Assembly (NCBI GenBank): GCA_004375965.1
Contig: SOIS01000152.1
Coordinates: 1-56,940 of the forward strand
Reading direction: 5' to 3'
DNA from: Candidatus Cloacimonadota bacterium
Lineage (GTDB): Bacteria > Hydrothermota > E44-bin80
Length of the DNA stretch: 56,940 nt
This document shows, one piece after another, positions 40,029 to 56,861 of the stretch. Position 1 is the stretch's first letter. The number at the start of each line of letters is the position of its first letter. The translations under genes and the position numbers were made by a program. The notes under the pieces are model-generated. The model saw nothing but the letters and a program-made list of their open reading frames with translations. It was not told the DNA's origin and did no database searches.

Positions 40029-40649
40029 TCAACGAGAGCGGACAATGTCCTTTACCTTCATCAACCGTGTAAGGTTACTTCTCTCCATTTCGGAGAGTTT
40101 CATTGTGATATACTTTATGGTGTCTTCAAGATTTGGTATGAGGATGTATTCAAGTGCATTTACCCTTCTTCTTGTCTTCTCTATTTCCTCTGCCATTAGT
40201 TGAAGCTTCTTTTCCTTCTCTGCAAGGTGAATAAGTTCTTCAACTACCCTTTCAATTGCAAGAAGTGATGAATCGAGTTCACCTGTTGTATGAGCAAAAC
40301 CATAGTTTTGAATACTGCCCTCTGTTTGAACCTTGAAGATGGGTGTTTTAACACCCATTGTAGATTTCTCTTCTATGGTAAGTTCGATCCTTATGCCAGG
40401 AATGAGCATAGCACTTTCGAGGAACTCAATTCCCATTCCTGCTTTGGCAAAGAGGTATCTTCCCGTTGCCTTGGCAAGTTCCCTGTCCACCTTTTTCCTC
40501 AGTTCCTTCACCTTATCCACAAGTTCAAGAAGTTGTTTCATTAGTTCGTCTTGCTTATCCTTAAGCAATTTATGACCTCTTTTTGCAAGCACACGTCTTT
40601 TTTTCAATCTTAAAAGTTCCATTCTGTTCGGATTTGTATCAAGGATCAT
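40029..40649 (-). CDS. atpD: A/V-type ATP synthase subunit D
   Basis: 206 aa. N-terminus NPNRMELLRLKKRRVLAKRGHKLLKDKQDEL. Confidence 0.9.
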   Translation of the reverse strand: MILDTNPNRMELLRLKKRRVLAKRGHKLLKDKQDELMKQLLELVDKVKELRKKVDRELAKATGRYLFAKAGMGIEFLESAMLIPGIRIELTIEEKSTMGVKTPIFKVQTEGSIQNYGFAHTTGELDSSLLAIERVVEELIHLAEKEKKLQLMAEEIEKTRRRVNALEYILIPNLEDTIKYITMKLSEMERSNLTRLMKVKDIVRSR

Positions 40650-40657
40650 GAGACCCC

Positions 40658-42073
40658 CTATTCTTTATATTCGCTTTTCTCACTCGTATCATCTTCTTTT
40701 TTGAATTTCTTAAAATATTTTTCTATATATTCGTCACGAACCCTTTTCATCTCTTCCTTTGGGAAAACACTTAGAAGTTTCCATCCCAAATCGAGTGTTT
40801 CTTCTATTGATCTGTTTTCATACTCACCTTGAGTAACATAGTTAGTTTCAAATGAGTCTGCAAAATCAAAATAGACCTTATCAATCTCTGAGAGCGATGC
40901 CTCTCCGAGAATGACCGCGAGTTCCTGTGCTTCTTTACCCTTTGCATATGCAGCGTACAGTTGATTGAGGAGGTCAGCATGGTCTTCTCTTGTCTTTCCT
41001 TTTCCAATGCCTTTGTCCTTCAACCTTGATAATGAGGGTAGCACATCGACTGGGGGTGAAACCTTTTTCCTATGGAGTGCTCTTGAAAGTATAATCTGAC
41101 CTTCTGTTATATATCCTGTAAGGTCTGGTATTGGGTGTGTCTTATCATCCTCCGGCATGGAGAGGATGGGAATTAGAGTTATTGAGCCTGTCTTCCCTTT
41201 TATCCTTCCTGCTCTTTCATATATGGTTGAAAGGTCAGTGTAAAGATAACCTGGATATCCTCGTCTTCCTGGTATTTCCTTCCGAGCAGCGGATACCTCT
41301 CTTAATGCCTCACAATAGTTTGTCATATCTGTCAGTATCACGAGCACATGCATATCTCTTTTAAATGCAAGGTATTCAGCAGCTGTAAATACAACCCTTG
41401 GTGTTGCAATTCTTTCAATTGCAGGATTATCGGCAAGGTTCAGAAAAAGTACTGCCCTCTCCATTGCTCCTGTCCTCTTGAAATCGTCAATAAAAAACTG
41501 AGCCTCTTCAAATGTAATCCCCATAGCACCAAAAACAACAGCAAACTCTTCCTCTTTTCCGAGTACCTTTGACTGTCTTGCGATCTGAGCTGCAAGTCTA
41601 TTATGTGGAAGCCCTGAACCTGAGAAAAGTGGGAGTTTCTGGCCTCTTACAAGTGGATTTAGTCCATCAATTGTGGAAACACCTGTCTGTATAAACTCGT
41701 TTGGATAGTTCCTTGCAGTTGGATTTATGGGTGAACCACTTATGTCCACCCTCTCATCGGGTATTATCGATGGTCCACCATCGATTGGTGAACCTAATCC
41801 ATCAAAAACCCTTCCGAGCATATCCATGGAAACACTAAGTTCTATCTCTCTACCAAGAAATCGAACCTTACTTTCTTCTACATCTATGCCTGATGTTCCT
41901 TCAAAAACCTGTATTAATGCAGTATTTCTATTTACCTCAAGAACTTGTCCCCTCCTTTTACAACCATCAGTGAGGAATATCTCCACAAGTTCTCCGAATT
42001 TTATATCCTTTACTTTGTCAACAATGAGAAGTGGTCCTGAAACATCAGTTATTGTTAGATAGTCTTTATACAT
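40658..42073 (-). CDS. atpB: A/V-type ATP synthase subunit B
   Basis: 471 aa. Non-catalytic nucleotide-binding subunit pattern ([22 protein letters not shown]). Confidence 0.95.
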
Positions 42074-42095
42074 TCAACCTCCTAAACTGCATCTC

Positions 42096-54490: not shown

Positions 54491-54561
54491 GTAACCTCCT
54501 TTTTAAATTTCCTAATTTCCATTTTCCTATTACGCAGTTTCGTTTTTCAACATTATTAAAA

Positions 54562-56556
54562 TTATGCTTCTTTAAGAATTATGTATTTTTCGTTTCTTCT
54601 TAAAGGATTAAAGGTTTTACCACCTCCGGTGAAGAATTTCTGGAAGAATTCAACATACTGCAGCCTTAAAGTATGCACAAAACCACCAAGGGTATTTATC
54701 CCCAAATTGAAGAGATGACCACAGACAAGGATAATAACAAAAATGACAATCCCTACAATGGGAATACCAAGTGTCATTCTTGCGATATCATTAATAGCTC
54801 CTGCAATTCCTGCAGTTACAAGTCCGAGAGCCATTAACCTGATATAAGAAAGAAAGTCACCAAGATATGAGAAAATACCACCAAGAATGAAGAACCTAAG
54901 ACCGCCTAGGAAAAGTCTGAAAAAGGGATTCTTTTCGTTCCGTGCACCAAAGATGAAAACTAATAATGCACTAACACAGAAAATAATCCCTGAGGGCAAG
55001 AGGTAAGTTTCTGGTAGTAATTTTTTTGGTGTTAAATTGAGTTGAATACAGAAATCAGTTGAGAAAAGCATTAAAAGGAGAGAGGTAATTATCGCTATCC
55101 AGACGATTCCTTCAAAGAATGCATCTGTAAATCTTTTGTCTTTTATATATTCATACAGTTTTATAAAAAGTCCCCAATAAATCTGTATGCATCCAAGGAA
55201 AAGAGCCAATCTGTAAAAGACAAAGTAGGATTTCATCGGATCAAAGAGCATTATCTCTTTTGTTATTTTGTCTAAAAAACTGCCCCTAAATAAGTCGCCA
55301 AACCACCCCCCGAGAAGAGCGCCTTCAATTATAGCAAAAATGGCTCCAATGAAGATAAGCCAGAGAAACTTCCTTCCCGTGGGAATCTTCTTCATGAGAA
55401 ATAGTGCTAAGAGGGCAAGGACAATACCATATCCAGCATCGGTAATGCACATACCGAAGAAGACAGCAAAAAAGACAGCAAGAAGAGGACTTGGATCAAG
55501 TTCCTTGTAATTTGGTGTGCCGTAGAGGTTGGTAACGATTTCAAAAGGCTGAAAGATTGTTTTATTGACCAATTTCACCGGAGGCTTTTCATCTTCTTCA
55601 GGTTCAATGTCAAGCATCATGGCTGCTTCATACGAATTGACAAGATTTTTTAATGTTTCCTTCCTTTTTGTTTCCACCCATCCCTCGATAATATAAGTAG
55701 TCTTTGTTCTCGTTGCATCCTGAATTGCATGTAACCTTGTTATCTCATTTAATGTATGTTCGTATATTATTAGAAGTTCCTGGTAAAAACCTACAAATTC
55801 CTTCCCTTGTTCAATAAGATTTTCTGTCTCATCTTCTACCATCTGTATCCTGGTTTGTATCTCCCTTAATATGTCGGATGGTTTTCCCTCAAAACCTCTG
55901 AAATCCTCTACTGAGAAGTTTATTTCGTCAAGAAAACTCCGAGCTTTTTCCTCATTACTTTTGTGAAAAATGACAATAAGGTATACCTCGTTTTTTGATT
56001 CATCAATTTTCTCAATCTCAATTCCAGCTTCCTCTGTTTTTTTTACCGTCTCGTCCTTGAAATATCTTTTATTTACTGTTCCTGCAAGTACTAATGAAGT
56101 AGCAGTAGTTTTAAGTAATTCCACAGGTGTAGAAAGACCAAGCCAGGGTTCGATTATTTCCTTATTTGATGATAGATGATCTTTCTCTGCTCTAAGTTTA
56201 GATAGTTGGATGTTTAAGATTTTAATTCTTTCTGTTATCTTTTCAAATTCAAAATTCTTAACTGTATCGATGAATTTTTCCTCTGAAACCGGAACTCTTT
56301 GTGGAATAAGCCCCTCGAGAAAACCACCTTTTTTGATAAAGTTTTGTAGGAATTTTCTTGTATCGTCAAGATGGTTTAGCTGTGACTCTAAGTGTCTTAT
56401 TCTTTCACCATCGGAAGTTTCATACTCGTTCTCTGCCGACTCTTCTTTTATTTTTGTAATATGGAGTGCGGATTCATCCTGGAGGTGTTTTAATAGTTCT
56501 TCCTTGTGAGAGGAATGAAGAGCAATTGAAACCTTTGTCATTCGAGCTATTGCCAT
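54562..56556 (-). CDS. atpI: A/V-type ATP synthase subunit I (a-subunit)
   Basis: 664 aa. Soluble coiled-coil N-terminal half and a polytopic C-terminal half containing LRLQYVEFF. Confidence 0.9.
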   Translation of the reverse strand: MAIARMTKVSIALHSSHKEELLKHLQDESALHITKIKEESAENEYETSDGERIRHLESQLNHLDDTRKFLQNFIKKGGFLEGLIPQRVPVSEEKFIDTVKNFEFEKITERIKILNIQLSKLRAEKDHLSSNKEIIEPWLGLSTPVELLKTTATSLVLAGTVNKRYFKDETVKKTEEAGIEIEKIDESKNEVYLIVIFHKSNEEKARSFLDEINFSVEDFRGFEGKPSDILREIQTRIQMVEDETENLIEQGKEFVGFYQELLIIYEHTLNEITRLHAIQDATRTKTTYIIEGWVETKRKETLKNLVNSYEAAMMLDIEPEEDEKPPVKLVNKTIFQPFEIVTNLYGTPNYKELDPSPLLAVFFAVFFGMCITDAGYGIVLALLALFLMKKIPTGRKFLWLIFIGAIFAIIEGALLGGWFGDLFRGSFLDKITKEIMLFDPMKSYFVFYRLALFLGCIQIYWGLFIKLYEYIKDKRFTDAFFEGIVWIAIITSLLLMLFSTDFCIQLNLTPKKLLPETYLLPSGIIFCVSALLVFIFGARNEKNPFFRLFLGGLRFFILGGIFSYLGDFLSYIRLMALGLVTAGIAGAINDIARMTLGIPIVGIVIFVIILVCGHLFNLGINTLGGFVHTLRLQYVEFFQKFFTGGGKTFNPLRRNEKYIILKEA

Positions 56557-56861
56557 TAGCCCAAAATCTCCTTTAGTACCCTCTTTACAGCTGCTTCAAA
56601 GCCCTTTTTTGACTTTGAAAGAGTTTCCTGTTTATCCTTTTCCATTTTGGCTTTTATCTTAACGAGCTCTTTTTCTGCTTCCTTTTTTGCTTCTTTTAAA
56701 GCAACCTCTATTTCACCTTCTCTTTTTGCCATTGCATCATTAATGGTTTTTCGAGCCTTATTTCTGGCTTCTTCAATTACTTTTTCTGCCTTTACCTCTG
56801 CGTTTTTCTTAATTGTATCTGCTTCCTTTTCAGTTTTTAAGATTGTATTTACAAGATCCAT
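56556..56861 (-). CDS. A/V-type ATP synthase small peripheral-stalk subunit (G/H-like)
   Basis: 101 aa. An entirely Lys/Glu/Ala-rich helix. It is the first gene of the operon, and its stop overlaps the atpI start by 1 nt. Confidence 0.7.
   Translation of the reverse strand: MDLVNTILKTEKEADTIKKNAEVKAEKVIEEARNKARKTINDAMAKREGEIEVALKEAKKEAEKELVKIKAKMEKDKQETLSKSKKGFEAAVKRVLKEILG

Follow-up and report, generated by a model that had tools for sequence, protein, structure and literature searches.

What places fatty acid synthesis genes and two separated electron transfer flavoprotein (Etf) genes inside an ATPase operon, and was the arrangement produced by assembly, by successive insertions or by an inherited rearrangement? 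The question is raised by contig SOIS01000152.1 of the metagenome-assembled genome GCA_004375965.1, submitted as Candidatus Cloacimonadota bacterium; "the window" below means this whole stretch of 56,940 nucleotides (nt). At 40029-56861 on the minus strand, the layout of open reading frames (ORFs) together with Pfam and NCBIfam assignments gives 19 co-directional genes in the order atpH-I-K-E-C-F / etfA / yceD-rpmF-plsX-fabD-fabG-acpP-fabF-rnc / etfB / atpA-B-D. The first-pass annotation had described an A/V-type ATPase operon split between atpF and atpA, with etfA and etfB themselves parted by the fab block. Both features are seen in the gene layout: atpF and atpA lie 8.1 kb apart, with 10 genes inserted between them in the same direction. 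It had counted 20 co-directional genes; the shared direction holds and the count is 19. We consider the best explanation of the whole to be a lineage-specific, fixed rearrangement that fused two housekeeping units into one 19-gene block, and give it a probability of roughly 0.75. The block reads, in order of transcription:

56556-56861 (-): atpH/G-like stalk subunit, 101 amino acids (aa), with which the block opens; NCBIfam AhaH / V-type subunit H, E 2e-7, under the curated cutoff
54562-56556 (-): atpI (V_ATPase_I), 664 aa; Pfam PF01496, E 3e-23
54044-54490 (-): atpK, duplicated c-type proteolipid, NtpK-like, 148 aa; Pfam ATP-synt_C twice
53373-53954 (-): atpE, 193 aa; Pfam PF01991
52313-53332 (-): atpC (AC39 family), 339 aa according to the gene call in the identical contig L001; Pfam PF01992, E 2e-53
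51991-52308 (-): atpF, 105 aa, final ATPase gene ahead of the break; Pfam PF01990
50771-51991 (-): etfA, CarE-like, with an N-terminal 2x[4Fe-4S] ferredoxin domain, 406 aa; Pfam Fer4, ETF and ETF_alpha
50244-50774 (-): yceD, 176 aa; Pfam PF02620
50053-50235 (-): rpmF (ribosomal protein L32), 60 aa, start in agreement with the L090 gene call; Pfam PF01783
49040-50056 (-): plsX; Pfam PF02504, E 2e-100
48115-49047 (-): fabD; Pfam PF00698
47310-48038 or 47310-48050 (-): fabG, with two start positions given; Pfam adh_short_C2 / adh_short / KR
47022-47264 (-): acpP; Pfam PP-binding
45688-46929 (-): fabF; Pfam ketoacyl-synt N and C domains
44832-45494 (-): rnc (RNase III); Pfam Ribonuclease_3 and dsrm
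44034-44828 (-): etfB, CarD-like, 264 aa; Pfam ETF
43869-44033 (-): etfB-atpA intergenic gap, 165 nt, of species-specific length; sequence inspected directly
42096-43868 (-): atpA, 590 aa, where the ATPase operon resumes; four A-subunit Pfam domains
40658-42073 (-): atpB, 471 aa; Pfam
40029-40649 (-): atpD, 206 aa, last gene of the block; Pfam PF01813, E 4e-58

Subunits I, K, E, C, F, A, B and D all score above the Pfam gathering threshold, and with the weak H the ATPase set is complete; the position of the atpH/G-like gene upstream of atpI is kept in loci L001, L087, L174 and L175. The tight junctions reported in the first pass were read directly in the sequence. The atpF stop and etfA start share one nucleotide (TAATG), etfA and yceD overlap by 4 nt (ATGA), and rnc and etfB are spaced by 3 nt. 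The widest internal gap is that between fabF and rnc (193 nt), compared with only 165 nt between etfB and atpA.

The gene order is real and inherited, not an assembly error. The exact EtfA protein occurs in an identical context in NCBI assembly GCA_054774055.1 as well as in five SRA runs, each assembled on its own, so that at least six independent assemblies of the window's species carry the same order. Single contigs cross from atpI to atpA (L002) and from atpF to atpA (L004), and a JGI contig (L094) has the order of the window. Twenty DNA runs contain the region, at 71-97% of the words sampled; they belong to 9 studies, whose sample types are marine sediment, cold seeps and vents.

The same order extends to diverged relatives. 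Six further lineages of the clade carry it, with EtfA 72-81% and AtpA at least 84% identical to the window: L089/L090 (EtfA 81%), L095 (80%), L087/L088 (75%), L175 (73%), L174 (72%) and L093 (EtfB 72%, AtpA 84%). Some of these members show only a sampled part of the 19 genes, which in L093 is rnc-etfB-atpABD. The genes that flank the block vary among clade members, and the submitters labelled these genomes WOR-3 or Cloacimonadota.

Outside the clade the ATPase operon is intact. A metagenome scan with AtpA gave 80 loci, whose 10-kb flanks we inspected. Both loci with AtpA identity of at least 87% are split; all of the remaining 78, at 62-73% identity, keep the canonical ...C-F-A-B-D order with atpF adjoining atpA, and no fab or etf genes were found in their 10-kb flanks. 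Since atpF and atpA are contiguous in every one of these outgroup loci, the split is a derived, lineage-specific character fixed in one clade. The prospect raised in the first pass, that this might be a widespread ancestral operon, is thereby half borne out: the arrangement is ancestral to one clade, but missing from 78/78 outgroup ATPase loci.

Where the insert came from is best seen in Etf loci outside the clade. Scanning genomes with an alignment of EtfA yielded 80 loci, each representing a species, with 53-61% identity and for the most part from Omnitrophota. They were annotated by tblastn with the window proteins; 47 of them have at least 5 kb of upstream sequence and are informative for context. 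An adjacent pair in the order etfB-etfA occurs in 68 of the 80, and the reverse order in none; among the informative loci, etfB lies directly ahead of etfA in 43/47. An acyl-CoA dehydrogenase (ACAD) precedes etfB in 45 of the 80 by Pfam check, and is adjacent in 33 of the 47. Genes for fatty acid synthesis by the type II route (FAS-II) lie within 9 kb in 16 of the 47.

Several of these loci resemble the insert closely. L031 and L078 read yceD-rpmF-plsX-fabH-fabD-fabG-acpP-fabF-ACAD-etfB-etfA, L075 and L086 read yceD-rpmF-plsX-fabH-ACAD-etfB-etfA-fabD-fabG-acpP-fabF-rnc, and L063 reads acpP-fabF-rnc-ACAD-etfB-etfA. The nearest outgroup by EtfB (L091, 65-66%), which is likewise the closest for fabF, plsX, fabD and yceD, has yceD-rpmF-plsX-fabD-fabG-acpP-fabF-etfB-etfA-gyrA, with 4-nt overlaps at both fabF/etfB and etfB/etfA; L092 has acpP-fabF-etfB-etfA-gyrA. 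The FAS-II order of the window, yceD-rpmF-plsX-fabD-fabG-acpP-fabF, recurs in L031, L075, L078, L086 and L091. The fab-etfB-etfA order of the nearest outgroup shows that the etf genes already stood at the 3' end of the fab unit in the ancestor, and hence that the linkage of etf and fab is older than the rearrangement. On gene order, the insert between atpF and atpA is one pre-existing yceD...fabF-(rnc)-etfB-etfA unit with a rotation by a single gene.

The fusion could have proceeded as follows. One unit would have been a complete bacterial A/V-type, NtpK-like ATPase operon (H-I-K-E-C-F-A-B-D), and the other a FAS-II cluster with CarDE-like, bifurcating-type Etf genes (yceD-rpmF-plsX-fabD-fabG-acpP-fabF-(rnc)-etfB-etfA). 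The second would have been placed between atpF and atpA rotated by one gene, such that etfA came first and etfB last. A circular or tandem-duplication intermediate opened at the etfB/etfA boundary could account for this rotation. Alternatively, an exchange between the etfB/etfA and atpF/atpA boundaries would make both outer junctions, and a second event would join etfA to yceD. The new junctions would then have been compacted to overlapping stop and start codons. In the resulting block etfA would be translationally coupled to atpF and yceD to etfA, with etfB and atpA downstream of rnc. The ATPase would still assemble normally, and the Etf would probably serve a reductase whose gene lies elsewhere than in the window, the most plausible task being to reduce acyl thioesters (enoyl-ACP, where ACP is acyl carrier protein).

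Several observations weigh against this account. Our gene context covers 7 of about 26 sequence clusters of the clade. No intermediate (atpF-yceD, etfA-atpA, or an ATPase operon beside a fab cluster) was found among the 78 ATPase and 80 Etf loci, so the path of the rearrangement can only be inferred. Linkage to fab genes is seen in only about a third of the outgroup loci, so a joint fab-etf unit is not found everywhere. In true Cloacimonadota, etfA occurs without a neighbouring etfB, and the separation of the two genes must therefore have occurred more than once. No ACAD, FabZ, FabH or known enoyl-ACP reductase (ENR) was found in the window by Pfam among all other ORFs of at least 80 aa. On the transcript side, the sole clear metatranscriptome (X26) has contigs inside atpA, fabF, plsX/rpmF, etfA and atpK and none across any junction, and the contigs that bridge rnc/etfB, etfA/yceD and most of the etfB-atpA gap come from DNA-containing libraries. 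Three libraries labelled RNA-Seq (X25, X27 and X28) contain DNA, given their contigs of more than 100 kb.

The lone etfA of Cloacimonadota has a context of its own. At L060:9938-13074 and L084:9998-13047 it is ferredoxin-fused and stands alone, with no etfB within 10 kb, and is followed by an amidohydrolase gene and then a small radical-SAM gene.

The ATPase of the block is probably a Na+-translocating V-type enzyme, judging from its proteolipid. The atpK product matches the NCBIfam model of V-type subunit K at 188.8 bits (cutoff 127) and aligns to Enterococcus hirae NtpK (2bl2_A) at E 5e-34. The equivalents of L61, T64, Q65, Q110 and E139, the Na+ ligands of E. hirae NtpK, are conserved; in the alignment to 2bl2_A, LPGTQ, Q and E fall at matching positions.

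The Etf proteins can be typed more closely. EtfA has Pfam Fer4 matches at residues 12-33 and 41-62, and its cysteines C18, C21, C24, C28, C47, C50, C53 and C57, which form two CxxCxxCxxxC motifs, are invariant in 22 homologues. Its best solved structure is CarE (6fah_A, E 3e-123); bifurcating complexes in the PDB score 1e-84 to 3e-123 against 1e-38 to 4e-50 for non-bifurcating ETFs. EtfB is best matched by CarD (6fah_B, E 1e-71), and every one of its top five solved matches belongs to a bifurcating complex (E 1e-61 to 1e-71), compared with 1e-28 for human ETFB. By these matches the window EtfAB is assigned to the CarDE-like, bifurcating type, and its EtfB may bind a second FAD and NADH in place of AMP. 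No partner was found in the 57-kb window by tblastn with two outgroup ACADs and one FabH.

What might such an Etf do beside fatty acid synthesis genes? It may have nothing to do with them, acting as the carrier for an ordinary bifurcating butyryl-CoA or acyl-CoA dehydrogenase in fermentation or syntrophic beta-oxidation, its position among the fab genes being accidental. The outgroup ACAD is indeed most similar to Clostridioides difficile Bcd of the Bcd/EtfAB complex (5ol2_C, E 5e-131) and also matches the AcrC model, and two thirds of the outgroup loci lack fab linkage. However, linkage in 16 of 47 loci compares with less than 1% expected by random placement in a genome of 1-4 Mb, by our own estimate. 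In L075 and L086 the triad ACAD-etfB-etfA has fabH on one side and fabD on the other, etfB and the fabF stop codon overlap in L091, and these clusters contain no other enoyl reductase gene. We regard an ordinary Bcd/Etf role as a serious contender, at somewhat less than even odds.

ACAD-etfB-etfA lies in or abuts FAS-II clusters at L075:7983-11185, L086, L077, L031, L078 and L008:7035-11185, and about ten further Omnitrophota loci have a fab-linked ACAD, etfB and ferredoxin-fused etfA; overall, several phyla are represented. This recurrence suggests that a CarCDE-like module reduces enoyl-ACP. The fab-embedded, CarDE-like EtfAB, joined in Omnitrophota and several other anaerobic lineages by a Bcd-like ACAD, would then be the electron-input module of an unrecognised Etf-dependent, possibly bifurcating ENR. 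Fatty acid synthesis would yield reduced ferredoxin, and the genes would have joined the unit of a Na+ ATPase that harvests such energy. We put this forward tentatively, as an idea that is more doubtful than probable. We found no paper in the searchable literature that ties Etf or ACAD to enoyl-ACP reduction, and none on a split V-ATPase operon in these phyla. A further alternative is a FabX-like (PMC8626469) back-dehydrogenation step for unsaturated fatty acids.

The overlap between atpF and etfA is 1-8 nt, and that between etfA and yceD 4-11 nt, in each clade member examined. In agreement with the first pass, the TAATG junction is tight enough to imply that etfA is translationally coupled to atpF. 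The same annotation had seen a promoter-like element in the etfB-atpA gap. The 165-nt gap is there, but the element, a TTGACA/TATAGT pair with a 15-nt spacer, is not conserved and is not called by our sigma-70 scan. This gap measures 54 nt in L087, 67 in L089, 63 in L093, 11 in L174 and 100 in L175. In L174 an 11-nt gap has no room for an intergenic promoter, so atpABD would there be transcribed from upstream or from within etfB. The gap between fabF and rnc shrinks from 193 nt in the window to about 65, 12 and -8 nt in relatives, with fabF and rnc overlapping in L174. A sigma-70 consensus scan of 39700-56940 found 52 sites against 45.5 +/- 6.9 in shuffled sequence, which is not above expectation, and the terminator and promoter scan as a whole is not above chance. 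Its strongest terminator-like site is a candidate end of the transcription unit:

39858-39887 (-): terminator-like hairpin of 13 pairs with a T-run, about 140 nt past atpD

From the overlaps, the short gaps in relatives and this sole strong coding-strand terminator-like hairpin after atpD, we infer that the block is for the most part transcribed as a single long unit, with promoters inside it.

Several local features accompany these gaps. No Rfam match was obtained in either the fabF-rnc or the etfB-atpA gap at E <= 0.1, and the fold z-scores are -1.86 for the rnc leader and +0.63 for the etfB-atpA gap (not significant). The rnc leader (45495-45687, minus strand, 193 nt) could form a long imperfect hairpin of about 20 bp, GGAGAAACAGAGAAC...GUUUCUGUCUUCUC, which RNase III might target to regulate its own expression, as in E. 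coli, with a z-score of only -1.86 and a homologous gap of at most 65 nt in relatives. Most of the etfB-atpA gap is filled by a 31-codon ORF (MDLVLTGEILIGEAF...) at 43937-44032 (-), 1 nt past the etfB stop; given gaps of 11-100 nt in relatives it lacks conservation, and it is unlikely to be a gene. In the short version of this gap in L087 (17776-17831), the relative whose EtfA is 75% identical, a hairpin of 7 perfectly paired bp, CCCCTTTAATAAAAGGGG, stands right after the etfB stop and may be an attenuator or processing site.

It is conceivable that selection keeps the fusion as an adaptive super-operon, because it puts the making of membrane lipids, the Etf linked to ferredoxin and NADH, and the Na+ ATPase under common control, as opposed to a neutral rearrangement that cannot be undone. 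Seven lineages, with EtfA identity as low as 72%, keep an invariant order while the genes on either side of the block change, and the junctions become progressively compact, to 11 nt at etfB/atpA in L174. Yet the arrangement arose only once, atp-fab-etf linkage being found in 0/78 other ATPase and 0/80 other Etf loci, and the variable gaps (-8 to +193 nt at fabF/rnc, +11 to +165 nt at etfB/atpA) leave room for internal promoters. We consider selection for co-regulation unlikely.

A nested history had been proposed in the first pass, in which etfAB entered first between atpF and atpA, and yceD...rnc then entered between etfA and etfB. The linear order does resemble a doll within a doll, and every junction is intergenic. 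But this path needs an etfA-etfB intermediate, an order never seen, as all 68 adjacent outgroup pairs are etfB-etfA; and etf genes alone inside an ATPase operon occur in 0/78 loci. Its premise, a fab block and an etf pair that are foreign to each other, is wrong, since fab-etfB-etfA linkage is present in the nearest outgroup and in several phyla. Nested insertion is accordingly very improbable.

Recent horizontal insertion was considered as well and rejected, there being no compositional break and no integrase or transposase inside the block; G+C content is even over its three parts, at 0.35-0.42.

A chimera of ATPase, etf and fab contigs, suspected because the window is metagenome-assembled sequence and its junctions fall at gene boundaries, has a negligible chance of being correct, since both outer junctions lie on single contigs in five Logan assemblies and one NCBI assembly, JGI and ENA contigs from other samples and species likewise cross both, and independent assemblies and relatives diverged to 72-81% identity agree on the layout and keep the junction type.

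Returning to the rearrangement by fusion of two units, a trace of it may persist downstream of the block:

28595-39767 (+): opposite-strand genes, 11.7 kb, that separate atpD from smc-ftsY
23785-28277 (-): smc and ftsY, 11.7 kb beyond atpD; Pfam SMC_N and SRP54
21081-21797 (-): scpA, on the same strand as the block

The smc, ftsY and scpA genes of the window seem to be left over from the widespread rnc-smc-ftsY neighbourhood. Since smc comes right after etfA in outgroup L008, an old rnc/etf-smc-ftsY neighbourhood was evidently broken in the course of the same rearrangement history.

Other genes of the window are of lesser bearing. A peptidase of the M1 family (998 aa; 36771-39767, plus strand), which carries fn3 and, at its C-terminus, a FlgD_ig-type domain, has the layout of secreted proteins of the FCB group, and a Por_Secre_tail protein is encoded near the block in L175; both fit an affiliation with the FCB superphylum. 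The only other lipid-related candidate is a 4HBT-fold thioesterase (33-428, minus strand) with a weak match to the N-terminal domain of acyl-ACP thioesterases. Two pairs of TPR and AAA_22 ATPase genes follow in succession (TPR at 29952-31226 and 32066-33961; AAA_22 at 31236-32066 (+) and 33993-34811 (+)) and are a duplicated two-gene module.

All genes of the block come from known families, arranged in a variant of known operons that is specific to one lineage; the finding is one of architecture and evolution and not of a new machine. A/V-ATPase operons are among the most order-conserved gene clusters, and one that has been stably inherited with 10 essential housekeeping genes in its midst offers a clean example from nature of operon fusion followed by junction compaction. 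The split may also be used as a synapomorphy for a poorly placed sediment lineage labelled WOR-3 or Cloacimonadota. The more promising thread is the recurrent linkage across phyla of a bifurcating-type Etf, with or without an ACAD, to fatty acid synthesis genes. If the module does reduce enoyl-ACP, it would be a fifth, mechanistically different class of ENR and would tie lipid synthesis to ferredoxin-based energy conservation in anaerobes.

Compared with the bacterial A/V-type ATPase operons of E. hirae (ntpFIKECGABD) and Thermus thermophilus (atp), the window shares the full subunit set and the order H/G-I-K-E-C-F...A-B-D. Unlike them it has 8.1 kb and 10 unrelated genes between F and A, and the feature of F directly before A in one operon is lost. 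Its atpK encodes a duplicated proteolipid, as does ntpK of E. hirae, and keeps the five Na+-ligand positions of that protein.

A conserved bacterial cluster has the order yceD-rpmF-plsX-fabH-fabD-fabG-acpP-fabF, as in E. coli and B. subtilis. The window shares this gene order, with rnc after fabF and smc-ftsY further downstream on the same strand, but it is without fabH, flanked by etfA and etfB, and enclosed in the ATPase operon. In the Bacillus-type neighbourhood the order is acpA-rnc-smc-ftsY, whereas in the window rnc is cut from smc-ftsY by etfB-atpABD and the 11.7 kb of opposite-strand genes.

With CarCDE, the caffeyl-CoA reductase-Etf of Acetobacterium woodii (6FAH), the window EtfA shares the N-terminal two-cluster ferredoxin domain of CarE, and the ACAD-etfB-etfA of the outgroup loci matches the order carC-carD-carE. 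In CarCDE and in Bcd/EtfAB (5OL2, 4KPU/4L1F), the partner genes belong to a phenylacrylate or butyrate pathway; in the window they are those of FAS-II. The expected adjacency of etfB and etfA with a partner dehydrogenase (ACAD, Ldh or EtfCX) beside them also fails here, as the two genes are 6 kb apart with no ACAD nearby.

Among enoyl reductase genes, fabK has its slot after fabH and before fabD in the fab operons of streptococci and clostridia, and the triad of L075 and L086 shares that slot with it. FabI, FabL and FabV (short-chain dehydrogenase/reductases) and FabK (a flavin mononucleotide enzyme of the NMO family) belong to protein families wholly unlike ACAD-EtfBA, and acyl-CoA dehydrogenase, Etf and ferredoxin all go unmentioned in a review of bacterial ENRs from 2022 (PMC9260719).

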